Under the pieces are notes generated by a model, which was not told where the DNA came from, did no database searches, and saw only the letters and a list, made by a program, of their open reading frames with translations. The position numbers and the translations under genes were made by a program. A stretch of 52,725 nucleotides of DNA, from assembly GCA_964583795.1 (NCBI GenBank), contig CAZOWX010000010.1, positions 1 to 52,725 on the forward strand. Direction: 5' to 3'. Shown here in pieces: positions 5,954 to 39,382 of this stretch (positions are counted from its first letter, which is position 1; every line of letters begins with the position of its first letter). This DNA comes from an uncultured Pseudomonadales bacterium (GTDB taxonomy: Bacteria; Patescibacteriota; Microgenomatia; UBA1400; PJMF01).

Positions 5954-6002
5954 GTGGTGGTGATCAGTTGTCAGTTGTGAGTTATTGGTTGCTAGGTTGA
6001 GA
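5954..6002. repeat. 7-nt-phased degenerate tract (7 units)
   Basis: gtggtgg tgatcag ttgtcag ttgtgag ttattgg ttgctag gttgaga, starting directly after the stop codon of the 5087-5953 ORF. Confidence 0.8.
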
Positions 6003-6203: not shown

Positions 6204-6269
6204 TCGGTGCTGAACAAGTGCGGTTTATTCTTCGAAAAACATTACCAGTAAGGCACAACACCAACAAAA

Positions 6270-9514: not shown

Positions 9515-9966
9515 TCCCCAATAGCATAGCGCACGAATCGCTTGATTTCCATCTTTTCACCGATCTTTCCAGAAAGCTCTTTGACCAGCTCTTCAATGGT
9601 TTGTTTGGGGTTACGGTTGTACTGTTGCTTCAAGAGTTCTTCGACTGATTCGGGAGCCATACTGGCAACCTGCATGGCGACTTCTCTTCCCATGTTTAAG
9701 AATTCCTCGTTGCGAGCGACGAAATCTGTTTCACAGTTAATCTCGACAATAGAAGCGACTTTATTCATATGAACGTATGAAGCAATAATACCTTCTTTTG
9801 CTTCTCGATCGGCCTTTTTAGCGGCTTTAGCAAGACCACGTTGTCTGACCCACTCTGCTGCCTTGTCCATGTCTCCATTTGACTCTTCGAGCGCTTTTTT
9901 GGCATCCATCACTCCAGCGCCGGTTTTTTCGCGTAATTGTTTGATTTGATCCATGGAAATTGACAT
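9511..9966 (-). CDS. tsf: elongation factor Ts (very short form, 151 aa)
   Basis: IKQLREKTGAGVMDAKKAL.ES.GD.DKA.EW.R (UBA-like N-terminus), then VEINCETDFVARNEEF. The start was chosen at the ATG at 9966, which is preceded by AAGGA. Confidence 0.9.
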   Translation of the reverse strand: MSISMDQIKQLREKTGAGVMDAKKALEESNGDMDKAAEWVRQRGLAKAAKKADREAKEGIIASYVHMNKVASIVEINCETDFVARNEEFLNMGREVAMQVASMAPESVEELLKQQYNRNPKQTIEELVKELSGKIGEKMEIKRFVRYAIGE

Positions 9967-10220: not shown

Positions 10221-11048
10221 CTAGCGTGCAGCTTTTCCAGCTTTGTAGGCCTCTGCAATAGTGTGGACGATCAACTTGATACTGCGAGCAGCATCGTCAT
10301 TGGCTGGGACAACGATATCCACGTTTGAAGGATCATCGTTACTGTCCACCATTGCAATCACTGGAATTTTAGCTTGATTGGCCTCTAAAATAGCAGTTTT
10401 CTCTCGTCCGATGTCAACGACAAATAAAGCGTCAGGAGTAGTTTTTAAATCAGCTACACCACCGAAAAAGCGCTCAAGGCGAGCCACCTCTTTTTCGATT
10501 AATAACTTCTCCATTTTGGTGTAGTGTTTGTACTTACCTTCCTTGAGATCATTTTTCATTTGAGTCATTGAACGCACCGATTTCGAAACTTGTTCCCAAT
10601 TGGTCACAAAACCACCAAGCCAACGGTTAACGATGTACATAGCGCCTGCTTGAACTGCTTCTTCGCGTACAATGTCCTTTGCTTGGCGTTTTGTACCGAC
10701 AAATACGATGTTTTTTCCTGCTTTGGCAAGTTCGTACACTTTTAGAGCAGCTAGGCGAAGCTGTTTTTCGGTGATGATCAAATCAAAGATATGCACGCCA
10801 TCTTTTTTTGCATAAATGTACGGAGCCATTTTGGGGTGCCAACGCTTTGCTTGGTGGCCAAAATGACATCCAGCTTCGAGGAGTTGGTGAACGTCATATT
10901 CAGGGGAAAATGTCGTAGAAGCAACTGCTCCAGCTTTTTTTGTTGCTGGTGCTGTTTTAGTAATTTGCGCCTCCTCTTTTGGAGTCGCTTTGGTATCAGT
11001 GGCAACTGTATCTGCCATAAAAACCGCCTTTCGCCGCTCATCCGTCAT
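10221..11048 (-). CDS. rpsB: 30S ribosomal protein S2 with an ~40-aa Lys/Thr/Ala-rich N-terminal extension
   Basis: LLEAGCHFGHQ..RW.PKM..YI, FVGTKRQA, and NRWLGG..TN. The start is uncertain, either 11048 or 11018. Confidence 0.95.
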   Translation of the reverse strand: MTDERRKAVFMADTVATDTKATPKEEAQITKTAPATKKAGAVASTTFSPEYDVHQLLEAGCHFGHQAKRWHPKMAPYIYAKKDGVHIFDLIITEKQLRLAALKVYELAKAGKNIVFVGTKRQAKDIVREEAVQAGAMYIVNRWLGGFVTNWEQVSKSVRSMTQMKNDLKEGKYKHYTKMEKLLIEKEVARLERFFGGVADLKTTPDALFVVDIGREKTAILEANQAKIPVIAMVDSNDDPSNVDIVVPANDDAARSIKLIVHTIAEAYKAGKAAR

Positions 11049-11063
11049 CCCGCTAAGCGGGAC
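11043..11063 (+). repeat. small member of the CGTCATCC-hairpin family
   Basis: cgtcatcccgc taa gcgggac. The ATG of the longest rpsB ORF is the reverse complement of its GTCAT. Confidence 0.5.
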
Positions 11064-11093
11064 AAGGTGGTTGTAACCGGATGATGTGTATTT

Positions 11094-11128
11094 AGTTAAT
11101 AGTAAACAGTTAACAGTGAATAGTTAAC
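11094..11128. repeat. 7-nt-phased tract (5 units)
   Basis: agttaat agtaaac agttaac agtgaat agttaac, lying between the rpsB start and the folD stop. Confidence 0.8.
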
Positions 11129-12056: not shown

Positions 12057-12133
12057 GTGGGTATTATAACGTAATTATTTGGGAAAATTGATTGATGTGG
12101 TTGAATTGACTACAAGTTCTCTTTTTCAACTCG

Positions 12134-12161
12134 CTACAAGCTACAGGCCTCAAGCTGCCCT
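12134..12161. repeat. 7-nt-phased tract, CTACAAG type
   Basis: ctacaag ctacagg cctcaag ctgccct. Confidence 0.75.
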
Positions 12162-12169
12162 CCTTCGTA

Positions 12170-12240
12170 CTTGAAATGATAACTTGACTGTTAGTCAGGT
12201 TTTCATTCAGGTTACTTTCGGCGGGCGAGCAAGTGACACG
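12170..12240 (+). repeat. ~70-nt structured repeat element, copy A (candidate small RNA or MITE core)
   Basis: About 77% identical by hand alignment to 34612-34681. It folds as nested hairpins, and the substitutions between copies stay paired only as G-U on the plus strand. Confidence 0.6.
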
Positions 12241-12289
12241 TGCCGTTCCCTTTCAAAGAGCTCTATTTGTCAGTAAATGCAACCAGTGA

Positions 12290-12375
12290 CCATTAATCCA
12301 CAATCCATAATCTACAATCTACCGTGTTCCGCGTAGCCTCTAGCGAAGTGGGATCATCCATCATCCATTATCATT
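12290..12375. repeat. 7-nt-phased tracts plus a solo copy of the cassette arm TCCATCATCCATTATC
   Basis: ccattaa tccacaa tccataa tctacaa tctaccg (12290-12324). The segment 12357-12372 is an exact 16-nt match to the right arm of the 24.2-24.6 kb cassette and overlaps the nfo stop codon. Confidence 0.8.
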
Positions 12376-13751: not shown

Positions 13752-15104
13752 TTACCAGGCAAATAATGGAAACTCTTTGGTCATCTGTTTCACTTCGTCA
13801 AAAATACTCAGTAGCACTTTATCTTTCTGAATATCTTGAATAAATGTGTTGACGAATGATTGGCGGTCCAGTTTATTTTCTGGTAATTCGTATTGCTTCA
13901 CATGGTTGGCTACTTGAGCAATCCATTTGGCAATCTGTTTCATCTCCCTCACTTTCATACCACGTGTGGTGACGAGTGGAGTGCCCAGACGAATTCCTGA
14001 TGGATAAAACGGTGATACTGGTTCATTGGGAATGGTATTGCGGTTGGCATAGAGTCCTGCTACATCCATAGCGACTGCAACCTGTTTTCCCAGACCGTAC
14101 CCTAACTGCGTAAGATCGATCAACATCAAATGCGTTTCCGTGCCATTGCCAACCAGTTTTAGTCCTTCACTTTGTAGTGCTTCGGAGAGCGCGTTGGCGT
14201 TGGTACGAATTTGCTTCGCGTAGCGGGTGAAGGCTTTGGTGCTGGCTTCTTTGGCAGCGATGGCGATAGCAGCGGTTGTGGCGTTGTGCGGCCCTCCTTG
14301 CATCCCAGGGATAATGGCAGCATTTAATTTTCTGCCCAACTGAGGATCACGATCAAGTCCACGTTGTGTGGCGAGAATCATCGCTCCACGCGGTCCGCGG
14401 AAAGTTTTATGCGTAGTACTCATGATGACATCAGCGTACGGTACTGGTGAGGGATGTTCTCCTCCGATCACCAGGCCGGTAATATGAGAGATATCACAGA
14501 CCAGCCATGCACCAACTTCATCAGCAATGTCTCGAAATGCTTTAAAATCCAGCACAAAAGGATAAGCGGTATTCCCTGCCATGATCACCTGTGGTTTATG
14601 TTTTTTGGCAAGTGTCCGGACTTCGTCAAAATCAATGCGAGCTTTCTTGTTGAGTCCGAACTGGATGCTATTATAAAAACGACCCGACGCTGTTACTTTG
14701 GGATGACCGTGAGTTAAATGTCCACCCATTACCAGTTTAAGCCCCATCAAGGTCTCACCTGGATTCATCAGGGCAAAATAAATCGCTGCATTGGCTGGTG
14801 AGCCTGAGTACGGTTGCACATTAACGTAGGGGACATTGAACAATTTTTGTACTCTATTTATCGCTTCGGTCTCAATTTTATCAACAATCTGACTGCCTTC
14901 GTAATAGCGGGCATCACTGTAGCCTTCTGAGTATTTGTTTGATAAACAAGAGGAAAGCACTGCAGAAACTTCCGGTGAGGCGTTGTTCTCTGAAGGGATC
15001 AGTCCAATTTTTTGTTTTTGTCGTTTTTCTTCCGCTTTGATAAGCGAAAAGATAGTATCTTGCTTTGGTTTTTGGGTGTTGGTTTTTGGTTGTTGGTTTA
15101 CCAT
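13752..15104 (-). CDS. glyA: serine hydroxymethyltransferase
   Basis: LIPSEN..SPEV, YSEGY...RYY.G, GGHLTHG and TTHKTFRGPRGA (PLP lysine). Confidence 0.96.
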   Translation of the reverse strand: MVNQQPKTNTQKPKQDTIFSLIKAEEKRQKQKIGLIPSENNASPEVSAVLSSCLSNKYSEGYSDARYYEGSQIVDKIETEAINRVQKLFNVPYVNVQPYSGSPANAAIYFALMNPGETLMGLKLVMGGHLTHGHPKVTASGRFYNSIQFGLNKKARIDFDEVRTLAKKHKPQVIMAGNTAYPFVLDFKAFRDIADEVGAWLVCDISHITGLVIGGEHPSPVPYADVIMSTTHKTFRGPRGAMILATQRGLDRDPQLGRKLNAAIIPGMQGGPHNATTAAIAIAAKEASTKAFTRYAKQIRTNANALSEALQSEGLKLVGNGTETHLMLIDLTQLGYGLGKQVAVAMDVAGLYANRNTIPNEPVSPFYPSGIRLGTPLVTTRGMKVREMKQIAKWIAQVANHVKQYELPENKLDRQSFVNTFIQDIQKDKVLLSIFDEVKQMTKEFPLFAW

Positions 15105-15820: not shown

Positions 15821-16005
15821 ATGGTTGGTTCGTCCTCTATTTTTTCGATTGTTTCTTCAAGGATTAAATCGCGAAGTAGAAGCAGTGTATCATTCCAGTC
15901 AACTTTGTCATAGGTACTTTTTCTTTATTGATTACAAGATTTAGAGTACTTATTGATTTCTGACTAAATTATACAAGGCTTTTACACTTGTTAATCAAGA
16001 ATAGC

Positions 16006-16165
16006 TCGTCATCCCGGCGGAAGCCGGGATCCATCATTACAGTCTGGATGCATATTTATATTGTTAGACGTCAAGGTTTTAACTCATTACTTTAATCAGT
16101 TTAAATTGTTTTGATTATTGTACATAAATTTGGGAAATGGATCCCGGCTTCCGCCGGGATGACGA
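16006..16165. repeat. pair of 29-bp hairpin repeats in inverted orientation flanking 102 bp (MITE-like)
   Basis: tcgtcatcccggcggaagccgggatccat (16006-16034) is the exact reverse complement of atggatcccggcttccgccgggatgacga (16137-16165). Each arm is itself a hairpin (ATCCCGGC/GCCGGGAT). Confidence 0.85.
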
Positions 16166-18027: not shown

Positions 18028-18062
18028 GTATTAGGTATGAAGTGTAAAGTATTGAGAATGTG
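18028..18062. repeat. 7-nt-phased tract (5 units) upstream of pyrG
   Basis: gtattag gtatgaa gtgtaaa gtattga gaatgtg. Confidence 0.7.
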
Positions 18063-18093: not shown

Positions 18094-18711
18094 TTATCGT
18101 TTTTTCTTAAGTGGACGTACCGCTTCAGAAGGATCAATTGGGGGACCATCTTGCCCAACTTCGGTTTGGTCCGATAAAGCTGCAATTCTTGGCGCTCTTT
18201 CATCATTTTTTCTTTTTCTATGTAATACATGAACGTGTACTGCCTGATGTAATTTTGTCAGTACAACAGCACTATCGTAAGCTGGTGTGTCTGGATGGAT
18301 CTCTGAAATGTCAATTCCATATTGATACGATAACCGCCGTAATAATTCTCGCCCTTTTGTGGAATTTGCGTCTATTTTGAGTTCTTTAACAAAAATTGAA
18401 ATAATAATCTCGGCAGCTGTAGTCACTACTAGAGCTCCTCCAAGGAAAGGTTCAACACTATTAGTCAATACAAGTGAAGCAACAGCTATCAATTCAACAA
18501 CACTAGCCGTAGTGATTCCTGTCAACCAAGGAATCTGCTTAAGTCGATCTATGTGTTTGTTAAGTTCAGCGCGAAAAGTTTGCCAGTCTTTGCGGTCCCA
18601 GTCCACTCGTGCCTCAATGTCGCTAAGCCAAGCAGCCATGACTTCTTCATCATGGGTTGCTGGATCTACTTCACCAAAAGTGTATCTAACCATAACTTCA
18701 TTATATCGCAC
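18094..18711 (-). CDS. hypothetical membrane protein (two central TM helices, basic C-terminus)
   Basis: 205-aa ORF. No family recognised. The start may be the downstream M at residue 7. Confidence 0.5.
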   Translation of the reverse strand: MRYNEVMVRYTFGEVDPATHDEEVMAAWLSDIEARVDWDRKDWQTFRAELNKHIDRLKQIPWLTGITTASVVELIAVASLVLTNSVEPFLGGALVVTTAAEIIISIFVKELKIDANSTKGRELLRRLSYQYGIDISEIHPDTPAYDSAVVLTKLHQAVHVHVLHRKRKNDERAPRIAALSDQTEVGQDGPPIDPSEAVRPLKKKR

Positions 18712-22358: not shown

Positions 22359-22393
22359 GCTACAAGCTTCAAGCTACAGGCTACAAGTGACAC
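22359..22393. repeat. 7-nt-phased tract, CTACAAG type (5 units)
   Basis: gctacaa gcttcaa gctacag gctacaa gtgacac. Confidence 0.8.
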
Positions 22394-22500
22394 AAGCTTT
22401 TCCTTTACAATCAGCGTCCCTTGTCAGTGAATATTGTCATTTTTAAATAAATTCCAATAAAGAAATAACGCTGAATCGACAGCAAGAAAAATAAAGAAGG

Positions 22501-22526
22501 CGTCATCCTGAACTCGTTTCAGGATC
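22501..22526 (+). repeat. CGTCATCC-hairpin repeat, TGAA-stem variant
   Basis: cgtcatcctgaa ctcg tttcaggatc. The stem is ATCCTGAA/TTCAGGAT. Confidence 0.8.
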
Positions 22527-22709: not shown

Positions 22710-24209
22710 CTAATTTGTTAATTGTTTTTCTAAAGTTGTCTTTACACTTTGTGGATCGACTTTCTTACCGAGCTTTCTCATCACCTGACCCATCAAAAAG
22801 CCAATGATTTGCGTTTTTCCAGCTTGATAGTCAGTGACGGCTTTTGGCTGTTCTTTAATAATAGAAGCAATAATTGTTTCAAGTTCACTCGTATCGACTG
22901 TATCAACGTGGGTAAATTCTTCAAATGTTTTGAGTAACTTGTCTGGACTCTCTAGCAACTGCGTTGCAAGTTTTTTGTTGACTAATAAATTAGCAAGTTT
23001 ATTGACATCTTGTTTGTTTTGCACAAAAAGTTGAGCGATAGCTTCGAACTGTTGCGTTTGAGTTGGAGTTACCGTGAGTACTTGCGCATAGCGTTTTTCA
23101 ACTTGATACTCTTTTCCCCATCGTTCAACGATCTGATCGGGAAGCTCTGGGAGTTGACTCTTGAGTTCATCAATTTGTTTTTGAGTGAACAGTATTGGAG
23201 GTAAATCAGGGTCAGGGAAGTAACGATAGTCTTCAGCATCTTCCTTTGACCGCTGGGAGAAAGTTTCGCTTTTTTTTTCATTCCAACCACGAGTTTCCTG
23301 CGTTGGTACTTCTCCTTTTGCAAGGATTTTTGATTGACGATCAATTTCAAATGCAACTGCCTTTTCTAGAAACCCAAACGAGTTGATATTCTTTACCTCA
23401 ACTTTATACTTGGGTAAATCTTCTTCAGTGAGACGCTTGTTGCTTGTGGCTTGTAGCTTGAAGCTATCCAAGAGCGAGATATTTGCCTCCAAGCGCAGGC
23501 TTCCCTGTTCCATGTTGCAATCAGAGATGTCCAGGAATCGCAAAATTTGACGCAGTTTTTTACCATACGCTTTTGCATGTGCTGCACTGTGGATGTCCGG
23601 TTCAGTTACAATTTCTACTAGTGGGACGCCTCCTCTATTGAAGTCAACGAGACTCACTTTTTGTTCTACAATTTTTTCAGTAGGTCCTGAATATTCATGT
23701 CTCAAATTTTTTGTATTTTCTTGTGGAGTTCGACTTGACTTTTCAGGATGACGGTTTGCAGAATTAACCGAGATAGTTTGATGAATCAATTTTCCAGTAT
23801 CTTCTTCCAAGTGAATACGGCGAATACGCACCGGCCCTTCTTCTGTCTCCAGAATGCCATGTTCACAAAACGGAATATCGTACTGACTAATCTGATAGCC
23901 TTTTGGCAAATCAGGGTAGAAGTAGTTTTTTCGATCAAACTTGGAAAACAAGTTGATTGTACAGTTGAGCGCCAGTCCTAACTTAATGGTCCACTCAATA
24001 GCCTTTTTATTGGCAACTGGCAGCGCTCCAGGCATGCCAAGACACACTGGGCATGTGTAGACATTCGGTTTCGGAGCGTGGAAGGGATCATTTTTACAAC
24101 CACAAAACATTTTGGAATTAGTCTTTAGTTCGGCATGAACTTCCATACCGATTATTGGGGTATAGATAATGGATGATGGATGATGGATGGATGACTTTTT
24201 ATTTTTCAT
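22710..24209 (-). CDS. gatB: Asp/Glu-tRNA amidotransferase subunit B
   Basis: IIGMEVHAEL.T.SKMFCGC, FDRKNYFYPDLPKGYQISQ, HLEEDTGK, VDFNRGGVPLVEIVTEPD, DYRYFPDPDLPP. Its start forms an ATGA overlap with the stop of the upstream four-helix-bundle gene. Confidence 0.95.
   Translation of the reverse strand: MKNKKSSIHHPSSIIYTPIIGMEVHAELKTNSKMFCGCKNDPFHAPKPNVYTCPVCLGMPGALPVANKKAIEWTIKLGLALNCTINLFSKFDRKNYFYPDLPKGYQISQYDIPFCEHGILETEEGPVRIRRIHLEEDTGKLIHQTISVNSANRHPEKSSRTPQENTKNLRHEYSGPTEKIVEQKVSLVDFNRGGVPLVEIVTEPDIHSAAHAKAYGKKLRQILRFLDISDCNMEQGSLRLEANISLLDSFKLQATSNKRLTEEDLPKYKVEVKNINSFGFLEKAVAFEIDRQSKILAKGEVPTQETRGWNEKKSETFSQRSKEDAEDYRYFPDPDLPPILFTQKQIDELKSQLPELPDQIVERWGKEYQVEKRYAQVLTVTPTQTQQFEAIAQLFVQNKQDVNKLANLLVNKKLATQLLESPDKLLKTFEEFTHVDTVDTSELETIIASIIKEQPKAVTDYQAGKTQIIGFLMGQVMRKLGKKVDPQSVKTTLEKQLTN
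23683..23754 (-). mobile_element. 72-bp palindromic-repeat copy inserted in frame within gatB
   Basis: The termini ggtcctgaa...ttcaggatgacgg match the repeat at 34805-34855 (gatcctgaa...ttcaggatgacgac). The segment encodes RHPEKSSRTPQENTKNLRHEYSGP, 24 codons. Confidence 0.6.
24161..24195. repeat. left arm of cassette 1 (7-nt-phased tract containing a 19-bp perfect IR arm at 24162-24180)
   Basis: tatagat aatggat gatggat gatggat ggatgac. It lies within gatB codons 5-16. Confidence 0.9.
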
Positions 24210-24574
24210 TTTTTTTCTAACTTAAACTTTCTAAAAGCTCTAATTCTTTTAATAAGTATTACAATTTCATTAATCAATTCATCGTTTCGAAGCAATTGCA
24301 TTTTCTGACAGAAGTATAATTGTGACAAACATTCATATGCCGAATTAATTGCGATTTTTATATATTTGGTTTCCTCTTTAATCGATTCGCAACCACTTCC
24401 CTCAGCTATATTGCTGGAAATTGATAAACTTGATCGATTCATCTGGTCCCCAATTGATTTTTTATGTTCAATTGAAAATCGTTGGGTTAAATTAAAAATT
24501 TTAACTGCAAAATCGAGTGAGTTTTGCCAAATTTCTAATTTTTCAAAAGGTGCTCCCATCGGTCCATCATCCAT
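24206..24574 (-). CDS. four-helix-bundle protein (23S rRNA intervening-sequence protein / Avd-like family)
   Basis: FEKLEIWQNSLDFAVKIF.L...F........DQM.RSS.SISSNIAEG.G..S.KE...Y..IA..S..E. The start is more likely M6 at 24559, which leaves the IR arm outside the ORF. Confidence 0.85.
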   Translation of the reverse strand: MDDGPMGAPFEKLEIWQNSLDFAVKIFNLTQRFSIEHKKSIGDQMNRSSLSISSNIAEGSGCESIKEETKYIKIAINSAYECLSQLYFCQKMQLLRNDELINEIVILIKRIRAFRKFKLEKK

Positions 24575-24595
24575 TATCTATGATCTATATATCTA
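24561..24595. repeat. right arm of cassette 1 (19-bp perfect IR arm at 24563-24581)
   Basis: ggtccat catccat tatctat gatctat atatcta. The segment tccatcatccattatctat is the reverse complement of 24162-24180. Confidence 0.9.
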
Positions 24596-25100: not shown

Positions 25101-25163
25101 CTATTCTCTATAATCCCTCACCTATTATCTATACATCCATCTTCCTCCACTCATTCCACTGTG
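25101..25163. repeat. 7-nt-phased tract (9 units) spanning the gatA-nudix spacer and the last 11 gatA codons
   Basis: ctattct ctataat ccctcac ctattat ctataca tccatct tcctcca ctcattc cactgtg. Confidence 0.8.
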
Positions 25164-26526
25164 TAGCTTTCTCAAACGCATCGCCGACTTTAATCGCAAG
25201 ATCTTCACGAAACATGGGGGCCACGATGTTCATTCCCAAGTAGAGATTAGTTTTTTCATCTTTATAGCATGGGACGTTAACACCAGGTAGTCCGGTCATG
25301 GAGCTTGGTTCAACCAGCATGTCTTCGAGCTCTCCAAACATGACTTCGCCATCGGTGACGCCAATCTTTTTTGCAAATCCTGGTGATGTTAGAGAGACAA
25401 GGACATCATATTTTTTAAACAACTGTTCAAAATCTTGTCGGAATTGAGTGCGTACTTTTTGAGCGAGGACATAATACTTGTCAGCGTACCCTTTACTGAG
25501 TGTATACGTTCCAAGCAAAATTCTGCGCCGTGCTTCATCACCAAAAAAAGAACGATCATTGCCATAGCGTACCCCATCATAGCGAGCCAGATTACTACTG
25601 ACTTCACTGCGCTGAATGACAGTGTAAATGGCGATTGCGTACTTTGGGTCAAGCGCTTGTGCTAATTCAACCTTTGCTCCTAATCCCTCAAGCACTTTTA
25701 ATGCTTGTTCAAACTGTGGTTTGACAGATGTTAGACCTGGGATATCCATATACAGCACTCCAACTTTGAGACCTTTGATGTTTTGATTCAAAAATTGGGT
25801 GTAATCAGGGATACTTTGTGGTGATGAGGTCCCGTCAAAAGGATCGTGACCAGCAATGGTATTGAAAATAATAGTGGCATCTTCTACCGTCTTGGTCATT
25901 GGTCCAGGACTATCAAGTGAAGATCCCATGGCGACCACTCCGTAGCGGCTCACTCTTCCATAGGTGGGTTTGAGCCCAACAATGCCACACCAGGCGGCTG
26001 GTTGACGAATTGAACCTGCTGTTTCTGAGCCGATTGCTGCAATACACATATTGGCAGCAACTGCTGCCGCACTGCCTCCAGATGATCCTCCTGGAAGGTG
26101 TTCTGGATTACGTGGGTTGAGCGTACGTCCGTATTGAGAAGTTTCAGTGGATGATCCGTGTGCCCAAGCATCAAGGTTGGTTTTACCGATGATCAGTCCT
26201 CCTGCTTCTTTGACCCTTTTCGTAACGGTTGATTCGTATGGTGGAATAAAGGTATCAAGAACGGTAGATGATGCCGTTGTACGAAGTCCTTTGGTTAAGA
26301 AGTTATCTTTCACCGCAATAGGAATGCCGGCGAGAGGCTGCGTTTTCGTTGGAATGAGTGATTTCGACTTGATTGCTTGTTCATCAAGAGTCAAAAACAC
26401 ATTCAGTTTTTTATTTTCACTTTCAATGTTTTTCATTGCACTTTGCCACAATTCAGCAGCACTAAACGTTTTATCTTTTAGCCCCTGAAGTGCTTGTTTG
26501 AGAGTAAGGTGTGCAAGAGATGACAT
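25129..26526 (-). CDS. gatA: Asp/Glu-tRNA amidotransferase subunit A
   Basis: Amidase signature GGSSGGSAAAVAA....A.GSETAGSIRQPA..CG.VG.KPTYG. Confidence 0.96.
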   Translation of the reverse strand: MSSLAHLTLKQALQGLKDKTFSAAELWQSAMKNIESENKKLNVFLTLDEQAIKSKSLIPTKTQPLAGIPIAVKDNFLTKGLRTTASSTVLDTFIPPYESTVTKRVKEAGGLIIGKTNLDAWAHGSSTETSQYGRTLNPRNPEHLPGGSSGGSAAAVAANMCIAAIGSETAGSIRQPAAWCGIVGLKPTYGRVSRYGVVAMGSSLDSPGPMTKTVEDATIIFNTIAGHDPFDGTSSPQSIPDYTQFLNQNIKGLKVGVLYMDIPGLTSVKPQFEQALKVLEGLGAKVELAQALDPKYAIAIYTVIQRSEVSSNLARYDGVRYGNDRSFFGDEARRRILLGTYTLSKGYADKYYVLAQKVRTQFRQDFEQLFKKYDVLVSLTSPGFAKKIGVTDGEVMFGELEDMLVEPSSMTGLPGVNVPCYKDEKTNLYLGMNIVAPMFREDLAIKVGDAFEKATQWNEWRKMDV

Positions 26527-26534
26527 ACAGTTTC

Positions 26535-26828
26535 TTAGTCTTGATCAATAAGTTGCGGTACGACAAAGTACCCATTGTGAGTGTGCTTGGCGTTCATCAG
26601 TGCTTGTTCTTGAGTGAACATGCGCTGTTCATCAACGATATCTTCTCGAAGAACATTGGTGAGTCCAGTGACCTGATGTGTCGGTTCTACGCCACTTACA
26701 TCAAGCTGAGATAGAGAGTTCACAACGGACAAGGTTTCATCAAATGCTTTTTCCAGTGCTTTTTCTTCCGTAGTTGTGACCGGAATTTGAGCAAGCTTCG
26801 CAACGTGATGAACAATACCTGTTTTCAT
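26535..26828 (-). CDS. gatC: Asp/Glu-tRNA amidotransferase subunit C
   Basis: 97 aa immediately upstream of gatA. Contains V..VAKLA.I......E........L..V..L..LDV.GVEPT. Confidence 0.88.
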   Translation of the reverse strand: MKTGIVHHVAKLAQIPVTTTEEKALEKAFDETLSVVNSLSQLDVSGVEPTHQVTGLTNVLREDIVDEQRMFTQEQALMNAKHTHNGYFVVPQLIDQD

Positions 26829-27023
26829 AACAGTTCATTTTATCATTCTTCATCAAGATGAGAAGGTGAGATTGTGTGTCGTTCATGCTAAATGTTGATG
26901 ACCATTAAAATTGCCAGCACTGAGTAACACAGAATAAGCGCAACACTAGCAACGGTACACAAAGAAGAGGACATTACCTTTACTATACGAAGTTTTTTCT
27001 TGATGTGCAATGTGTGATTAACA

Positions 27024-27058
27024 GCTGCGAGCTTCAAGCGACAAGCTGCAGGCAACTT
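27024..27058. repeat. 7-nt-phased tract, CTACAAG-related (5 units)
   Basis: gctgcga gcttcaa gcgacaa gctgcag gcaactt. Confidence 0.75.
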
Positions 27059-27427
27059 TGAAAAAGGGAATAATTTGCAAGTATGTAGAATCTAAAGGAT
27101 GAGCAGTAATGTATAACAACACAACCACTCAACCACCGAACAACTAACAAACGAATCAACCATGCAACTAGCCAACCCATAAAGGGCTTTATCTTGACTT
27201 TCCAAATCATTTTGACAGTAACGATAATTTTTATCAGTATACTTAACAACCCTACTACACAACAACCTACCTCGCCGGCAGGCAGGCGTAACAACTTTTC
27301 GCGATAAGTACTACAGTAAAAATGTCTAACAAATCAACAATGACACTTATCTGCTGGCAAGCAAGCGAGTTGACCAACAAACTCATTCCCTTTGGCCTGC
27401 AATTATGAGACAATACCACCTTACCCT

Positions 27428-28384
27428 ATGAATGATCATACTGTGACTCCACCAGTAGTGTTGTCTGTGCAACATTTGTCCAAAAACTTTCATACAGCAA
27501 AGTCTGAATTTCTGGCGGTTGAGGATGTCACATTCGAGATTCACAAAGGTGAAATTGTTGGACTGCTTGGACCAAATGGGGCTGGAAAAACAACAACAAT
27601 TCAAATGTTGCTTGGGTTAATGACCCCAACTCAAGGTAGTATTTCCTATTTTGGACTTCCCTTCAACCAACACCGTGAAGAGATTTTACAGCGAGTCAAT
27701 CACACCTCTGGATATGCACAAATGCCTTGGCGACTGAGTGTGTACGAAAATATCAATATTTTTGCCTGGATGTATGGGATAAAAAATCGTAAGCAAAAAA
27801 TTTACGAGCTAGCTGAAGTGTTTGGCACCACCAAATTTTTGAAAAAACGATTCGTAGAGTTATCTGCCGGACAGCGAACCAGAGTGTTATTGATGAAAGC
27901 ATTTATTAATGAGCCTGAGTTGGTTTTGCTGGATGAGCCAACGGCTAGTTTGGACCCAGACATCGCAGAGCGAATTCGAGTGTACATTTTAAAGGAACAA
28001 AAAGCGCGCACGATGTCGATGTTGATCACCTCACACAATATGAAAGAAGTCGAGCAAATGTGTGATCGTGTGGTGTTTTTAAATCATGGGAAAGTCTTCG
28101 CGATCGATACCCCGCAAGGATTAGCTCGCCGCAATACCATGTGTGAGTTACAACTCATGGTTGAGGATGGATTAAAGCGTTTGATTGAAGTAGTGGAGTC
28201 GTATCACTACAAGTTTGAGGAAAAGCAACGCTTTATCTCGATTACTTTGCCAGAAGAAAAGGTGGCGGTTTTTTTGAGCGATATGGGAAGTCGTGGGTTA
28301 AAGTTCACTGAGATTGAGATTGTTCGTCCGTCACTCGAGGATTTCTTTTTGTCTGTCAGTGAGCAAGAGAAGGGAGATGTATGA
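27428..28384 (+). CDS. ABC transporter ATP-binding protein (ABC-2/DrrA-like)
   Basis: Walker A GPNGAGKTTT, signature LSAGQR, Walker B LVLLDEPT. The first in-frame ATG was chosen as the start; the longer ORF begins with TTG at 27392. Confidence 0.92.
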   Translation: MNDHTVTPPVVLSVQHLSKNFHTAKSEFLAVEDVTFEIHKGEIVGLLGPNGAGKTTTIQMLLGLMTPTQGSISYFGLPFNQHREEILQRVNHTSGYAQMPWRLSVYENINIFAWMYGIKNRKQKIYELAEVFGTTKFLKKRFVELSAGQRTRVLLMKAFINEPELVLLDEPTASLDPDIAERIRVYILKEQKARTMSMLITSHNMKEVEQMCDRVVFLNHGKVFAIDTPQGLARRNTMCELQLMVEDGLKRLIEVVESYHYKFEEKQRFISITLPEEKVAVFLSDMGSRGLKFTEIEIVRPSLEDFFLSVSEQEKGDV

Positions 28385-29166
28385 AGTGGCATCGGATTTG
28401 GGCGATTGTCTTGCGCCATTTATATAACTTCCGTCACAATCTTGATCGAGTAGTTGATGCATTTTATTGGCCTTCATTGGATGTGGTGGTATGGGGGCTG
28501 ACTTTGACCGCGATGGAAAAACAGGGTCAAACAGTGACTAATCAAGTATTTTTCATTGTCATTGGGACGATTCTTTGGTTTATTATGTGGCGAGGGCAAG
28601 GAGAAATCACGGTTAACTTTTTAGAAGAGTTATGGAGCGAGAATTTAATTAACCTTTTTGCATCGCCACTGAAGTTGGTTGAGTGGATGGTTGGTTTGTG
28701 TCTAATGGGAATATTTAAACTGATCTTGACGATTGCACTCACTGCCTCAATCGCCTTTTTGCTTTACAGAACTAATTTATTAACTTTGGGTTTGTGGTTG
28801 GTACCATTTGCTTTGACGCTGTTACTTTTTAGTTGGGCGTTTGGATTTATGACTGCTGGGATGTTTTTGCGCAAAGGTACTGATGTGCAAACCCTGGCTT
28901 GGGCGGGGGCCTTCATCTTGATGCCGTTTTCGGCAGTGTACTATCCGCTGTACTTACTCCCCAAGTGGGTCCAAGCAGTTGCTTCGATCTTGCCAACGAC
29001 TTACGTTTTTGAAGGAATGCGATTGTTTGTCCAGACTGGCCAACCTCCAGTTGAAGGGATCATCAAAAGTTTTGTGCTCGATGCAATCTATTTGAGTTTG
29101 GCCGTGTGGTTTTTTGTTCGTTCATTTGCCGCTGCGAAAGAAAAAGGTTTGGGACATTTGAAGTAA
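28381..29166 (+). CDS. ABC-2 type transporter permease
   Basis: 261 aa with about 6 TM spans. Its start forms an ATGA overlap with the ATPase stop. Confidence 0.85.
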   Translation: MKWHRIWAIVLRHLYNFRHNLDRVVDAFYWPSLDVVVWGLTLTAMEKQGQTVTNQVFFIVIGTILWFIMWRGQGEITVNFLEELWSENLINLFASPLKLVEWMVGLCLMGIFKLILTIALTASIAFLLYRTNLLTLGLWLVPFALTLLLFSWAFGFMTAGMFLRKGTDVQTLAWAGAFILMPFSAVYYPLYLLPKWVQAVASILPTTYVFEGMRLFVQTGQPPVEGIIKSFVLDAIYLSLAVWFFVRSFAAAKEKGLGHLK

Positions 29167-29185: not shown

Positions 29186-29632
29186 TCACATGCTTTCTGA
29201 AGCAATTTTTGATTCACTTGTGTTGCCCATTGAATCAACCGACACCTCGTACAATGCTTTTGCCGCCCTATATTCATTGATACTTCCAGCATTTTGCGGA
29301 TCAAATGTGAATTCAAGAAATGCGTCACCTTGAGCAGTGACAACTGCAAGATCTGGAGAGTATGTCAAAACTTGACTCTCTGCTTGAGTTTTACCATTTT
29401 CATCAAGGATTTTTAATTTCAGTATCATTCCATCACTGAGTTCTAGTTTGGTGATAGGAAACGTGGTTACTTTGTCAGCTTCAGTTGCTGTGTCTATTGA
29501 TGTTGGTGCGACCGCACTCTGTGACTGTGATTGTTTGTTCTGAGTCGTATCTGAAGATCTGTTGCACCCTGCTAGAAATAACACTGAGCTGATAACAATA
29601 ACTGAGAACAAATATTGATGAGTTCTTTTCAT
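29186..29632 (-). CDS. putative lipoprotein
   Basis: Starting at the ATG at 29632 gives MKRTHQYLFSVIVISSVLFLAGC, a signal peptide plus LAGC lipobox. The ORF sequence upstream of that looks non-coding. Confidence 0.6.
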   Translation of the reverse strand: MKRTHQYLFSVIVISSVLFLAGCNRSSDTTQNKQSQSQSAVAPTSIDTATEADKVTTFPITKLELSDGMILKLKILDENGKTQAESQVLTYSPDLAVVTAQGDAFLEFTFDPQNAGSINEYRAAKALYEVSVDSMGNTSESKIASESM

Positions 29633-29794
29633 AGAAGTGAAAAAATAAACATGTATAGTAGTATGATTGTAACGAAAGCGTTGTTGTGTGGCAATCAATA
29701 AGTATCTCAGAAGGTTGCAATGAGAAACAAAATTATTTGAAAATAACTGAAGTTTAGTTATGAAACAACAGCTCGACTTCAAAGATTGAAATGA

Positions 29795-32392
29795 TTATTT
29801 CTTTTCCAATTCTAGTTGAGCATTTTTAATTCCAACACTCACCGTAATTGCTTCATCATCAACCCGATCAAGCATGATCAGTGACAGGGGATCAAGCACA
29901 TCAATTTGAATGACTCGTTTGAGTGGGCGGGCGCCAAAGACGGGATCGTAGCCTTTGTCAGCTAGATACTTCTTTGCTGATTCAGTTATTTCCAGCTCAA
30001 CTCCTTGATCCTTAAGGCGCTGTTGCAAGTCTTCGAGTTGAATCGCCACGATCGATTCAATATGCTTGGCACTGAGTGCCTCAAAGAAAATGACTTGGTC
30101 GATGCGATTGAGAAACTCAGGTTTAAAAGAGTGATGTAATAAATCCCAGATCGATTTTTCTAAAGCTTGCTTATCCTTGTCCGATAATGTATCGGACTTC
30201 TCGTACGCTTCTTGGATTAAGTGAGCGCCAACATTACTGGTCATAATGATCACCGTATTTTTAAAGTCAACGGTTCGACCTTTGCCATCAGTCACTCTTC
30301 CTTCATCAAAAATCTGTAAAAATGTATTGAAAATTTGGGGATGAGCCTTCTCGACTTCATCAAGCAACAAAATTGAGTAGGGCTTGCGCCTCACTGCTTC
30401 GGTGAGTTGGCCGCCTTCTTCATAACCGACGTACCCTGGTGGGGCACCGATAAGTCGAGCGACTGAGTGTTGCTCAGAGTACTCGCTCATGTCAATTCGG
30501 ATAATCGCTCGCTCATCACTCAATAAAATCTCAGCCAAGGCTTTGGCGGTTTCAGTTTTCCCCACTCCAGTAGGACCAAGGAACAAAAATGTGGCTAGTG
30601 GTTTGCCTTGTTCAGCGATCCCAGTGCGAGCGCGACGAACGGCATTGGCCACTGCCTTGAGGGCTACTGCTTGACCAACAACTCTTTTTGATAAGTCATC
30701 CTCCAAGTGAATCAACTTTTGTGACTCACTTTTCACTAGGCGCTTGACCGGAATACCAGTCCAGCGTGCTACTATGGCAGCGATATCATCTTCTCCAACT
30801 TCTTCTTTAAGGAGTTTTTCTTCAACGGGAATGTGCTCCCATTGTTTTTGGGCCTGTGAAAGCTTTTTTTCTGCTTCAGGAATTTTGCCGTATTTGATCT
30901 CGGCAGCTCTATCGAGCTCAACATTGCGCTCGGCAATTTCCAGCTCACTGCGCAATTGTTCGATTTGTTGACGCTGCGATTGTACGGCTTGTAAAATCTG
31001 TTTTTGTTTATCCCAGCGGGACCGTGTTTGTTGCAGCTCTTCTTTTAAATTAGCAAGCTCATGCTCGATCTCATTTTTACGAGACTTTGCTTCTGGTGAT
31101 GATTCTTTCTTTAGGGCCTTTTCTTCAATTTCCAGTTGGGTGACTTTTCGCGCGAGTGTGTCGATGGTAATTGGGTCGGATTCTGTCTCGATTTTCAGTG
31201 CTGAAGCGGCTTCATCAACCAGGTCAATAGCTTTATCCGGTAAGAAGCGATCTTGGATGTAACGATCCGATAAAACTGCAGCTGCAACCAGTGCATCATC
31301 GGTAATTCGAATTCCATGATGAACTTCATACTTTTCTTTGAGTCCTCGTAAAATTGAGATTGTATCCTCCACTGTGGGTGCGTAAACCGGAACTGGTTGA
31401 AAACGTCTTTCGAGCGCGCTGTCTTTCTCAATATACTTACGATACTCATTTTGAGTGGTGGCACCAATGACTCTCAGGGCTCCGCGAGCCAGAGCGGGCT
31501 TCATCATGTTCCCGGCGTCGGTACTGCCCTCCCCTGCTCCTGCTCCAACAATCGTGTGCAGTTCATCGATGAATAGAATCACATTCCCTTCTGACTTGAC
31601 CGCTTCCTCAATGACATTCTTCATGCGCTCTTCAAACTCCCCCCGAAATTTTGCTCCAGCGAGTAATGATGAAATTTCGAGTGTCAAAATAGTTTTGTTT
31701 CTCAGTGACTCTGGGACGTCTCCTTGGACGATTCGAATGGCCAGCCCTTCGACTACCGCTGTTTTTCCGACTCCTGGTTCGCCAACTAAAACAGGATTGT
31801 TCTTGGTTCGGCGAGACAGTACCTGCATTACCCGGCGAATTTCTTGTTCACGACCAATGACTGGGTCAAGTTTCCCTTCGGTTGCCAAAGCGGTCAGGTT
31901 CGTTGTGTATTTTTCTAAGATCTTGTAGTTTTGATCGGAACTTTCGGGGTCTTGAGTGGCGTTTTGGTGGTGTGCCATAATTTTCTCCTTGATGCGCTCA
32001 TACGTGACGTCAAATGAGTCTAATATCTTTTTACTGTCTATGTCTGCTTTCGTCAATGCGAGCAATAAAATATCTTGGCTAATATATCCTTGATTGAGGG
32101 AGTTGGCGTTTTGTTGGGCTTCTTGGATGACACGAATAAGAGAAGTTGATGGTTTTGGTTCTGGTTGGGTTTCTGTAGTGGGGAGACTTTCTAACTTCTC
32201 ATGAATTGTCTGCTTGAGGCGCTGAGTGTCTTGAACTAGCTCATTGAGAAAATCTTGACTAATTCCTGAATTTTCAACTAACGCTTGCAATAGATGGAGG
32301 TTCGTGACCTCGCTGTGTTTTGCCTCTTGCGCGCTTTGGGCAGCTTCATTAAGAGTAAGTTGACTTGATTGGGTGAGTTTGGGCGATATCAT
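29795..32392 (-). CDS. clpB: ATP-dependent chaperone ClpB
   Basis: Two AAA+ modules ([18 protein letters not shown]) separated by a long coiled-coil M-domain. The start is set at the ATG at 32392; the TTG at 32410 lies inside the repeat tract. Confidence 0.97.
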
Positions 32393-32396
32393 AATT

Positions 32397-32431
32397 AACT
32401 CAAAGTTCAAAGCTCATAACTCAAAATTTAA
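32397..32431. repeat. left arm of cassette 2 (7-nt-phased)
   Basis: aactcaa agttcaa agctcat aactcaa aatttaa. The segment 32418-32429 (aactcaaaattt) is the exact reverse complement of 32847-32858. Confidence 0.8.
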
Positions 32432-32458
32432 CCACATGTTACCAATTTTTAAAAACAA

Positions 32459-32818
32459 TTACAGTGATCGTTTCATGGTCTTAATGCTAGATGCGAGCAT
32501 TCTTGCTAGTTCTTGAGCTTCATTTAGGAGTGGCGTAATTTTATCTTTATCAGCAAGATTTGCCTGTTCAAATAATTCTAGCCAATAAACGGTTTCGTTG
32601 GCACTTTTTAATGAAATTTCATAGTAACGAATAAATTCTTTTTTTGAACTTGAAGAAATTGCTTCATGAATATTGGCACCAATGCTAGTGCCAGAGCGAA
32701 GCAACTGATCTGATAATTTCCAGTAGATTGCTGAGTTAGGAAGTTGTTTAAAAAAAGAGATCACGTTTAGCGAAAATTGAAATGACCTCTCCTTAAGTAC
32801 ATTTTTCTTTTGATTCAT
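32459..32818 (-). CDS. four-helix-bundle protein (23S rRNA IVS protein / Avd-like family)
   Basis: ERSFQFSLNVISFFK.L.......LSDQLLRSGTSIGANI.EA.SS.SKKEFI....ISLKSANET.YWLEL. ATG at 32818; the ORF track extends to a TTG at 32833. Confidence 0.85.
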   Translation of the reverse strand: MNQKKNVLKERSFQFSLNVISFFKQLPNSAIYWKLSDQLLRSGTSIGANIHEAISSSSKKEFIRYYEISLKSANETVYWLELFEQANLADKDKITPLLNEAQELARMLASSIKTMKRSL

Positions 32819-32836
32819 TTCGTTTTTTACCAATAT

Positions 32837-32878
32837 TTGGAGCTTGAAATTTTGAGTTTTGAATTATGAGTTATGCGA
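32837..32878. repeat. right arm of cassette 2 (7-nt-phased), overlapping the htpX stop
   Basis: ttggagc ttgaaat tttgagt tttgaat tatgagt tatgcga. Confidence 0.8.
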
Positions 32879-34502: not shown

Positions 34503-34611
34503 AGTGACTCCTTATTTTTGTTCGATATTTTACTAAAGATGTACTTTGTATTATACGCTTTTTGAGTGAGTTCAACAACATTACATAAGCTTCAGGCTAC
34601 CATCCTACGCG

Positions 34612-34681
34612 CTTGATATGAAAACTTGATCATTTGTTGGGTTTCATTCAGGCTGCTATGGCGGGTACGGCAAGTGACACG
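34612..34681 (+). repeat. ~70-nt structured repeat element, copy B
   Basis: cttgatatgaaaacttgatcatttgttgggtttcattcaggctgctatggcgggtacggcaagtgacacg. It is the counterpart of 12170-12240. Confidence 0.6.
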
Positions 34682-34804
34682 AGCTATTTCTTTTGCTTAC
34701 TTTACCTGTCTGTACGCCACTCCTAAGAACGCAACAACTCAACAACATTACCTACTGAAGGCTTTACTACTATTGGATTGAGCAAAGCAAGTGGTCTGAC
34801 TTTA

Positions 34805-34855
34805 GATCCTGAATCCGTCTTGCTCGTTCCTCGCTAGACTGTTCAGGATGACGAC
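34805..34855 (+). repeat. CGTCATCC-hairpin repeat, TGAA-stem long-loop variant
   Basis: gatcctgaa-(28 nt)-ttcaggatgacgac. Confidence 0.8.
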
Positions 34856-34926
34856 TTTTTACTTTTCTTGTTTTTAAAATGTATTGTTACCCCAGACACT
34901 AATTCCTAATCGCTCGTCACTAGTTG

Positions 34927-34996
34927 CCAATCCACTATCCACATTCTACATTCCACATTCCATTATCCATTATCTATGCGTCTATAAATCCATCAT
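34927..34996. repeat. longest 7-nt-phased tract (10 units), includes a solo cassette-arm copy
   Basis: ccaatcc actatcc acattct acattcc acattcc attatcc attatct atgcgtc tataaat ccatcat. The segment 34961-34978 (cattatccattatctatg) matches the cassette-1 right arm. The tract runs into the dinB stop. Confidence 0.85.
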
Positions 34997-39272: not shown

Positions 39273-39307
39273 CCTGAAACCTTAGACCTGACACCTGAAA
39301 CCTAGCA
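39273..39307. repeat. 7-nt-phased tract (5 units) abutting the tRNA-Thr 3' end
   Basis: cctgaaa ccttaga cctgaca cctgaaa cctagca. Confidence 0.8.
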
Positions 39308-39311
39308 AGAG

Positions 39312-39382
39312 AGCCTCCTGACAGAATCGGACTGTCACCCGCGGTTTACGATACCGCTGTTCTACCATTGAACTAAGGAGGC
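39312..39382 (-). tRNA. tRNA-Thr (anticodon CGU), CCA not encoded, atypical T-loop
   Basis: The reverse complement is GCCTCCTTAGTTCAATGGTAGAACAGCGGTATCGTAAACCGCGGGTGACAGTCCGATTCTGTCAGGAGGCT. All four stems pair. Anticodon loop is ATCGTAA. The T-loop is TCCGATT rather than TTCGAAT. Confidence 0.8.

Follow-up and report, generated by a model that had tools for sequence, protein, structure and literature searches.

Degenerate heptanucleotide arrays in a Patescibacteria contig include inverted pairs that bracket S23p genes

The 52,725-nt contig CAZOWX010000010.1 (assembly GCA_964583795.1), analyzed here over its whole length and hereafter called the window, carries degenerate tandem arrays of heptanucleotide units that fall into families. 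They are of the same type as the short tandemly repeated repetitive (STRR) sequences of cyanobacteria, here in Patescibacteria. Four of the tracts form two inverted pairs, each enclosing an open reading frame (ORF) of about 120 aa for a PF05635 / TIGR02436 protein (23S rRNA intervening-sequence protein, four helix bundle; hereafter S23p). This pairing of inverted heptamer arrays around a PF05635 ORF is also present in six other phyla. An earlier reading of the window, made from its sequence alone, had drawn attention to 7-nt phasing of tracts at gene boundaries; the inverted pairing, the S23p ORFs and the sequence families are features beyond that reading. The explanation that we favor, with a probability of roughly 60%, is that slippage-grown heptamer arrays are tied to S23p cassettes, that the paired arms serve as RNase III-type stems, and that the unpaired (orphan) arrays are by-products.

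A period-7 signal in the window and in related loci

We scanned the whole window for self-matches at each lag p. At period 7, 11 segments scored at least 10, compared to 0.23 ± 0.42 in 30 dinucleotide-preserving shuffles of the window, and each other period from 2 to 21 gave 0-2 segments. The sequence-only reading had proposed such an autocorrelation check for the intergenic DNA and gene termini of the genome; over the window, period 7 alone is enriched. An independent method, Tandem Repeats Finder (TRF), returned 15 period-7 rows. The 14 tracts listed in the sequence-only reading are all found where it placed them, and three arrays (12353-12372, 15064-15099 and 23435-23465, the last one inside gatB) come in addition to its list. 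Lag 7 is the best lag for 17 of 17 tracts, with a lag-7 identity of 43-92% compared to a background of 25.7%. Most of the strong segments (8/11) are mostly non-coding, compared to a non-coding share of ~17% of the window (~83% coding).

The arrays are 3-7 units long and degenerate. The sequence-only reading held that just 2-4 positions per unit are kept, which understates their conservation: in most arrays the differences are confined to 1-3 of the 7 unit positions, and the two most variable positions account for 89% of the mismatches, compared to 75% in a detection-matched simulation. Several arrays show a 14-nt super-period by TRF, which is expected if two-unit blocks get duplicated. As substitution-only decay of a tandem array yields strict phase, the phase needs no special explanation. 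Some tracts are weak when taken alone. The tracts at 25101-25163 (lag-7 identity 0.43) and 12134-12161 (0.57) draw their support mainly from family resemblance, the one at 5954-6002 is strong only in its core at 5964-5983 (0.50 over the full span), and the one at 18028-18062 (0.61) matches no other window tract.

Comparison of the tracts with each other gave 14 cross-matching pairs, compared to 0.9 expected, and none of 300 permutations reached 14. The pairs define family A (TCCATCA / ATCCACA; six window sites), family B (GCTACAA; four sites) and family C (CTCAAAG; two sites).

The DinB relatives of the window belong to metagenome-assembled genomes of Patescibacteria (Candidate Phyla Radiation, CPR), with a best identity of 78%, and the GatB relatives agree, which excludes a cyanobacterial origin of the window. 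We compared the window with 80 CPR loci (the comparison loci that we fetched carry L-numbers). The period-7 excess recurs in this comparison with related genomes, which the sequence-only reading had also called for: 1.25 Mb of related loci hold 135 period-7 segments, compared to 11-37 at the other periods from 4 to 12. Among their arrays, 83/129 are mostly non-coding, with ~15% of that DNA being non-coding. Occurrence is patchy, and 46 of the 80 loci are without any heptamer array.

Two S23p cassettes between operon genes

The two cassettes measure 429 and 478 nt and lie between operon genes, nudix|gatB and htpX|clpB, in a window without rRNA (Table 1). The arms of cassette 1 are 33 nt long and 85% complementary, 19 nt of them perfectly, and they pair in both the minimum free energy (MFE) and the centroid fold of the sense RNA (z = -4.06). 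The arms of cassette 2 (24 nt, 83% complementary) likewise close both the MFE and the centroid fold (z = -1.78). The encoded proteins share 35% identity, and the TIGR02436 scores of both exceed the cutoff. The first of them matches PDB 2GSC (Xanthomonas XCC0516, a solved pentamer) with E = 4e-10, and its stop codon overlaps the gatB start (ATGA). Pfam scans of the window proteins found no transposase.

Table 1. Coordinates of cassettes, arrays and spacer inserts in the window
Feature	Position	Strand	Details
Cassette 1 5' arm	24557..24589	-	Family A; sense UAUAGAUCAUAGAUAAUGGAUGAUGGACCGAUG; 8 nt past nudix stop; contains S23p start codon (24574)
S23p gene 1	24206..24574	-	122 aa; Pfam PF05635 E = 7e-26; NCBIfam TIGR02436 E = 2e-24
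Cassette 1 3' arm	24161..24193	-	Sense CAUCCAUCCAUCAUCCAUCAUCCAUUAUCUAUA; read as codons 6-16 of GatB N-terminal extension
Cassette 2 5' arm	32850..32873	-	Family C; begins on htpX stop codon
S23p gene 2	32459..32833	-	Start TTG 32833 or ATG 32818; Pfam PF05635 E = 2.5e-26; TIGR02436 E = 3e-31
Cassette 2 3' arm	32396..32419	-	Overlaps most upstream possible clpB start (TTG 32410)
gatB-internal family-B array	23435..23465	-	In frame; sense AGCUUCA AGCUACA AGCCACA AGCAACA; lag-7 identity 0.88
Orphan family-A array past dinB	34927..34975	-	Lag-7 identity 0.76; detected by TRF
Insert E1	34503..34992	-	490-nt non-coding dinB|lemA spacer; A-array 34927-34975, core 34583-34702 (~120 nt), degenerate B-array ~34570-34602
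Insert E2	12057..12370	-	Non-coding nfo|folD spacer; A-arrays 12353-12372 and 12290-12324, core 12140-12262, B-array 12134-12161
Family-B array	22359..22393	-	19 nt upstream of dnaE start; adjoins partial E core copy (22372-22410)
Family-B array	27024..27058	.	Divergent gatA / ABC-transporter intergenic region
Weak family-A-like purine-rich tract	25101..25163	-	Spans gatA stop, ends at nudix start; cross-matches cassette 1 arms
AGTTAAC array	11093..11128	.	Between folD-like gene and rpsB
TTGGTTT array	15064..15099	-	14-nt super-period, 95% match; first 14 codons of longest glyA ORF
TCAGTTG array	5961..5995	+	Directly after stop of ORF 5087-5953
CCTGAAA array	39273..39307	.	4 nt from 3' end of tRNA-Thr (39311-39382, -)
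Degenerate GTATTAG tract	18028..18062	-	Between ORF 18094-18711 and pyrG; weakest member, below scan threshold

Inverted heptamer arms around PF05635 genes in other genomes

In the window and the 80 CPR loci, inverted array pairs fall into two spacing classes, 10-55 nt and ~350-430 nt, and every pair of the 350-430-nt class holds a PF05635 ORF. Taken from the gene side, 11 of the 14 CPR PF05635 ORFs found by hidden Markov model (HMM) have inverted arms scoring at least 14, nearly all with period 7 and one with period 9. A flank inverted-repeat score of at least 14 occurs at 9/13 PF05635 ORFs compared to 15/1143 other genes (1.3%; Fisher p = 9e-14).

To sample other taxa, we ran tblastn of one S23p against 72,556 plasmids, which matched 30 records (16 of them Nostoc), and picked 12 plasmid loci for taxonomic spread (five phyla) before their sequences were viewed. 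They come from Nostoc (three loci), Anabaena, Euhalothece, Planktothrix, Gloeocapsa, Monoglobus (Bacillota), Bernardetia and Chondrinema (both Bacteroidota), Treponema and Chlorohelix. In 12/12 loci, inverted arms flank the PF05635 ORF and period 7 is the best lag in both arms; the weakest arms, which are degenerate, are those of Anabaena cylindrica (first-pass score 12.5) and Chondrinema (12). In 50-kb stretches of the Treponema and Monoglobus replicons, strong heptamer arrays occur at the cassette only, which ties the arrays to the cassette rather than to the genome at large. To test a prediction, we also fetched Xanthomonas homologues of 2GSC; the gene lies between accB and accC and is flanked by heptamer arrays (GGGAATC GGGAGTG GAGAATC GGGAATC and CCCATTC CCCATTC TCGACTC CCTATTC).

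On the sense strand of the ORF, 18 of 21 cassettes have a purine-rich 5' arm (p = 0.0015). There is only a weak correlation between heptamer identity and S23p similarity (Mantel r = -0.185, p = 0.017). Given this weak correlation and the purine polarity, what is conserved is the period, the complementarity and the polarity, not the sequence. We considered a heptamer "recognition code" matching S23p subfamilies and rejected it, as the correlation is only weak and co-descent would give the same.

Several loci show further arrangements. L073 (7814-10000) holds three S23p cassettes within ~2.2 kb, 300-600 nt apart, each with its own heptamer (AATTCAA, CGTACNA, CATGTAA) and a divergent S23p. The CPR cassette in L071 has arms with a 9-nt period (9195-9231 / 9604-9640; CGTACATNN), and the locus holds six period-9 segments. 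Other cassettes are wedged inside single operons or systems (L089, L091, L094, L095, L103/L105), at hsdS|hsdR, RND adaptor|permease, DUF1156|HEPN, helicase|methylase and accB|accC. Downstream of the Chlorohelix cassette (L102), the adjacent N-6 DNA methylase gene contains four more heptamer tracts (26505-29139), whose units are related to those of the cassette arms. Ordinary genes can be bracketed too, namely a transketolase-like ORF (spacing ~1050 nt) and dinB (L025 6178-7283, L050 13447-14558, L035 9848-11251).

The pairs with a short loop, hereafter hairpin-type pairs, measure 62-113 nt overall. Most of them lie between genes of the same direction and take up the entire spacer, from the stop codon of one gene to the start codon of the next, and they resemble cassettes without the ORF. 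A parallel exists in 23S rRNA intervening sequences (IVSs), where short Salmonella-type IVSs stand beside ORF-bearing ones. In L081 (Anabaena cylindrica pANACY.01) and L083 (Nostoc sp. TCL26-01), the cassette lies between cas2 and cas1 on the opposite strand, and such lodging may explain the "CRISPR-linked" PF05635 genes of large screens (PMC10910872).

Gain of arrays and compensatory change of arms

The closest genome, L001, is syntenic with the window at 70-80% nt identity and has zero heptamer arrays in 21 kb. The distance from the nudix stop to the gatB start is 2 nt in L001, where the window has a 429-nt insert, and the dinB-lemA distance is ~14-20 nt in L001 compared to 490 nt in the window. 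No direct duplication is visible at nudix|gatB in the comparison with L001, the 70-80% nt identity there being too low to define the ends of the insert. The region 29186-32833 of the window corresponds to a break in synteny: htpX is followed directly by ABC-transporter genes in L001, and in the window cassette 2, clpB and an ORF at 29186-29782 intervene.

Cassette 1 is missing from L001, L085 and L087 and is present at the nudix|gatB junction of a more distant relative, L086, with a protein 65% identical. The L086 arms use another heptamer (GAATGTG / CCACATT). Within each element the predicted arm duplex is strong (-32.7 kcal/mol in the window and -55.3 kcal/mol in L086), whereas duplexes across the elements reach only -11.2 and -18.3 kcal/mol; the window 5' arm, for example, pairs at -32.7 kcal/mol with its own 3' arm compared to -11.2 kcal/mol with the 3' arm of L086. 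Arms that have diverged between elements and yet remain self-complementary represent compensatory change, which argues that the arm stem of the cassettes is under selection.

Arrays have also entered coding sequence. Together with adjacent bases, the gatB-internal array (36 extra in-frame bases) encodes a 12-aa loop insert, SFKLQATSNKRL, that is missing from Thermotoga maritima GatB and from L001. L085 has a different array (TCCACAT) in the matching GatB loop and a further array (TACAACN) in its N-terminal codons. Across 16 GatB relatives, length varies at three sites, the N-terminus and two loops. A second in-frame GatB insert of ~28-35 aa (SVNSANRHPEKSSRTPQENTKNLRHEYSGPTEKIV; window 23669-23756, codons ~152-179) is not obviously heptameric; it is missing from L001 and T. 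maritima and common to the window and its closest relative P0002. The gatB|dnaE spacers of relatives allowed no alignment with the window, and a search for same-species contigs by the exact nudix protein found none on record. Where comparable, these alignments indicate that the window arrays are lineage-specific insertions, recently gained.

Orphan arrays and the inserts E1 and E2

The span that the sequence-only reading had flagged in particular, 34927-34996, is phased as claimed up to ~34975; the remainder (34976-34996) is unphased, and its positions 34993-34995 are the dinB stop codon. The phased part reads GGAUAAU GGAAUGU GGAAUGU AGAAUGU GGAUAGU GGAUUGG in the sense strand (-), starts 17 nt past the dinB stop and forms the 5' end of insert E1. 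Its GGAATGT heptamer is the arm unit of the orthologous L086 cassette. No inverted partner was found for this array. Its sense RNA contains little C, and its fold is no more stable than those of shuffles.

E1 and a second insert, E2, share one layout, in which one or more family-A arrays right after a stop codon are followed by a core and then by a family-B array at the end. E2 is a partial second copy of E1, with 78% identity in the shared core (104 nt aligned of ~120). E1 lacks an ORF, and a comparison with Rfam gave no match at a cutoff as loose as E ≤ 1. No further copy of the core was found in 100 fetched loci, and a single metagenome pattern scan gave four chance matches and no real similarity. 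Coding potential of the core was ruled out by stops in all frames and by 1-2-nt non-triplet indels. We also looked for decayed S23p genes in the dinB|lemA, nfo|folD and gatB|dnaE spacers and rejected them, since tblastn and the S23p HMM returned only fragments with E = 0.06-0.14.

All four family-A orphans have the polarity of the cassette 5' arm (purine-rich in the sense strand), and three of the four lie at or within ~17 nt of a stop codon, with the fourth (12290-12324) starting ~47 nt past the nfo stop. The family-B array upstream of dnaE and the gatB array, 1045 nt apart, show 86% complementarity over 28 nt, and the AGTTAAC unit includes the palindrome GTTAAC, so that its array can pair with itself. 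Orphan arrays acting as hairpins or Rho-independent terminators were ruled out because their sense RNA is unstructured (z of 0 to +2.7 compared to shuffles). The density of arrays that are not arms is 2.77 per 10 kb in loci with a PF05635 gene compared to 0.70 in loci without one (p = 0.01, uncorrected for phylogeny).

Other repeats in the window

A family of GC-rich palindromic hairpins (ATGGATCCCGGC..GCCGGGATGACGA) occurs at 6173-6204, 16003-16034 and 16137-16165, and also at 11049-11070; two copies, 102 nt apart, are 100% complementary over 29 nt. These hairpins could be terminator-like or dispersed elements like repetitive extragenic palindromes (REPs). The copy at 11049-11070, a strong GC hairpin, adjoins rpsB (10221-11048). 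Within the longest rpsB ORF, residue 56 is the first to match Ribosomal_S2, and the true start probably lies downstream of the annotated one. A 13-mer, CGTCATCCTGAAC, is found at 22501-22513 (+), 34841-34853 (-) and 23741-23753 (-), with 6 matches at ≤2 mismatches compared to 1.06 expected, and forms small hairpins (AUCCUGAA...UUCAGGAU) in the gatB|dnaE and dinB|lemA spacers.

Relation to known heptamer repeats and intervening sequences

The STRR heptanucleotide sequences of heterocystous cyanobacteria were reportedly described by Mazel and colleagues in 1990 (cited in PMC4692102). The window arrays resemble them in having 7-nt tandem units that are mostly intergenic and belong to few recurring unit families per genome. 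The sequence-only reading had named STRRs as the nearest analogue; the analogy is right in kind and closer than it supposed, in that Nostocales plasmid arrays also flank PF05635 genes in inverted orientation. The host, however, is one of the Patescibacteria, the window units are unrelated to STRR1-3, and the arrays are short (3-7 units) and degenerate where many cyanobacterial ones are long and near-perfect. The original STRR definition, with long near-perfect arrays and a heterocystous cyanobacterial host, thus does not cover them. Degenerate heptanucleotide repeats are also said to form the P6b hairpin of the Nostoc tRNA-Leu(UAA) intron, a finding attributed to Costa and colleagues in 2002. 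The likeness lies in copies that base-pair into a hairpin and vary by slippage, but the P6b repeats sit inside a group I intron and not beside an S23p ORF.

The closest relatives in architecture are IVSs. The 23S IVS of Coxiella burnetii is 428 nt long, and its ends pair into a stem of 28 bp, which RNase III cuts. Immediately before the S23p start stand 2-3 GACAGAT heptamers, in a copy number that varies between strains (PMC4990558); S23p-bearing IVSs of Leptospira were described by Ralph & McClelland 1993 (cited in PMC4990558). Like these, the window cassettes are elements of ~430 nt (429 and 478 compared to 428 nt) in which a PF05635 ORF lies between terminal inverted repeats (24-33-bp stem), and, as in Coxiella, tandem heptamers stand in the 5' arm beside the S23p start. 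Unlike them, the cassettes lie between protein-coding operon genes rather than in 23S rRNA helix 25 or 45, and heptamer arrays make up most of the length of their arms. RNase III excision, shown for Coxiella, is inferred for the window cassettes.

Three further comparisons concern dispersed heptamers. Rehm et al. 2015 described GGGAATC arrays of Xanthomonas and GGGGA(T/C)T arrays of Nostoc PCC 7120, including 70 convergent inverted pairs in X. campestris, and studied them as G-quadruplex formers (PMC4692102). The window arrays likewise occur singly or as convergent inverted pairs, and one Xanthomonas GGGAATC-family pair is the one that flanks the S23p gene between accB and accC. However, the window units are not G-rich, and Rehm et al. 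draw no S23p link (PMC4692102). The TAACTGA intergenic direct repeats of marine Beggiatoaceae, cyanobacteria and Bacteroidetes (MacGregor 2015, PMC4679880) are similar in forming short arrays (2-6 copies, often interrupted by related 7-mers) that are mostly intergenic and near start codons. They differ in being a single dominant heptamer, nearly always forward upstream of starts, with one inverted case and no cassette association. As summarised in PMC4679880, Mrazek et al. 2007 found heptanucleotide long simple sequence repeats (SSRs) favoured in scattered bacterial lineages and proposed slippage, a model that predicts unrelated units at independent sites. The window units instead form families and pair around one gene family.

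Proposed mechanism

In the explanation that we favor, arrays would lengthen by 7 or 14 nt at a time through replication slippage or unequal exchange, and later decay by substitution would keep the phase while the unit drifts. The sequence-only reading had offered a slippage-type origin, which fits the 14-nt super-periods, the lineage-specific gain and the strain-to-strain variation in heptamer copy number in Coxiella (PMC4990558). An S23p ORF bracketed by two inverted heptamer arrays would be the element known from 23S rRNA intervening sequences. The predicted folds suggest that, in the transcript, a duplex of 24-33 bp between the arms surrounds the S23p ORF and masks the start codon of this ORF. 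This duplex would most likely be cut by RNase III, separating the flanking cistrons; stem geometry and the precedents of Coxiella, Leptospira and Salmonella IVSs point to such excision. The duplex would also limit S23p translation, as argued for Coxiella. Orphans are most likely solo or relic arms, or arrays spread by copying. They would persist at sites where they do no damage (spacers, N-terminal extensions and permissive protein loops) and would not be specific protein-binding sites.

Placement at gene boundaries, which the sequence-only reading had emphasized, holds as an observation. It is largely explained by the cassettes and hairpin-type pairs, which fill whole intercistronic spacers from stop codon to start codon; the other tracts merely lie in short intergenic DNA.

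Several points weigh against this explanation. Within the window, 13 of ~17 arrays are not cassette arms, and their derivation from cassettes is backed only by heptamer families in common and by the arrangement that relatives show at the gatB junction. The long spacers yielded no decayed S23p ORF by tblastn or the S23p HMM, and the excess of orphan density in PF05635 loci ignores phylogeny. The absence of arrays from L001 shows that the process is patchy. RNase III cleavage, transcription across the cassettes and mobility enter here as inference or proposal, and the favored model leaves the 7-nt unit length unexplained.

As a tentative extension, S23p cassettes may be self-propagating elements whose ends are inverted heptamer arrays. 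The orphan arrays of Patescibacteria, Nostocales (STRRs), Xanthomonas (GGGAATC) and others would then be footprints or ORF-less derivatives, and the S23p pentamer would bind, protect or mobilise the array duplex.

Alternative explanations

The tracts could instead be plain slippage microsatellites that arise independently of each other at any non-coding site that permits them, with ~7 nt being the unit at which the replicase is prone to slip (proposed by Mrazek et al. 2007, according to the summary in PMC4679880) and the S23p association incidental. Among long SSRs, heptanucleotide repeats form the most frequent class in several unrelated bacteria (PMC4679880, PMC4692102), 14-nt super-periods occur in some arrays, and the permissive GatB loop holds different arrays in the window and L085, all of which speaks for such an origin. 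It is nevertheless unlikely, given that the arrays form few sequence families rather than unrelated units, that the partner arm mirrors variant units, that inverted arms mark PF05635 ORFs far more often than other genes (9/13 compared to 1.3%), and that strong arrays in the 50-kb Treponema and Monoglobus regions occur at the PF05635 cassette only.

We regard as doubtful the idea that the arrays are platforms for an oligomeric or modular nucleic-acid-binding protein that takes one unit per 7 nt, for which the S23p pentamer or an S1, Csp or CsrA-type protein, as proposed for TAACTGA repeats, would be candidates. The conservation of the period without the sequence, the purine-rich 5' arm in 18/21 cassettes and the heptamer-S23p correlation are compatible with it, and S23p is a toroidal homopentamer related to the diversity-generating retroelement (DGR) protein Avd (PMC4990558, PMC10053308). 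That correlation is weak, however, and simple co-descent would yield it likewise; units differ among the arrays of one genome, even between adjacent cassettes (L073); orthologous cassettes with 65% protein identity carry different heptamers; and the orphan arrays are without a common motif. Binding of the TRAP, HutP or PUF-like type does not fit arrays and cassettes that share a period and differ in their motifs. The single modular protein reading 7-nt units that the sequence-only reading had suggested is thus unsupported, as units differ even among the three cassettes of L073 and heptamer identity tracks S23p similarity only weakly.

A functional role of the orphans as unstructured leaders or spacers (standby sites, enhancers or intercistronic insulators) that keep mRNA single-stranded near start codons is very unlikely. 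Their sense RNAs do fold no better than shuffles or fold worse, several are purine-rich and directly upstream of starts (25101 at nudix, 22359 at dnaE), and a similar idea was put forward for the TAACTGA repeats in MacGregor 2015. Yet the array past dinB is 425 nt from the next start, the arrays at 5961 and 39273 follow stop codons at convergent junctions, some arrays are inside coding sequence, and L001 has none at the matching junctions and no visible replacement. Chance, or an artefact of composition in AT-rich intergenic DNA, has a negligible probability: although three of the listed tracts are individually weak, the window holds 11 segments compared to 0.23 expected with no other period enriched, and 1.25 Mb of related loci hold 135 at period 7 compared to 11-37 at others.

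Implications

Heptanucleotide arrays (STRRs, long SSRs, TAACTGA, GGGAATC) and S23p IVS elements were already known. Our literature searches on heptamer repeats in Patescibacteria, or on a link of such repeats to four-helix-bundle genes, returned nothing but the paper on the Coxiella IVS. To the extent that the literature could be searched, three things are new: heptamer arrays in Patescibacteria, S23p IVS-type cassettes inside protein-coding operons, and a general rule, joining two literatures, by which inverted heptamer arrays bracket S23p ORFs.

For annotation, the arrays create N-terminal extensions and loop inserts in essential proteins such as GatB and can mislead start-codon calls. More broadly, the cassettes occur in mRNA operons and not only in rRNA, and their architecture spans CPR, cyanobacteria, Bacteroidota, Bacillota, Spirochaetota, Chloroflexota and Xanthomonas. 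Catalogues of STRRs go back to 1990 and offer no known function or origin for them, and S23p-bearing rRNA IVSs, known since 1993, likewise have no known origin; the window connects both. The two puzzles are now testable in tractable organisms such as Xanthomonas (the accB-S23p-accC locus) or Nostoc. If the cassettes do turn out to be self-propagating, the 35-year-old STRR puzzle and the IVS puzzle would share one answer.

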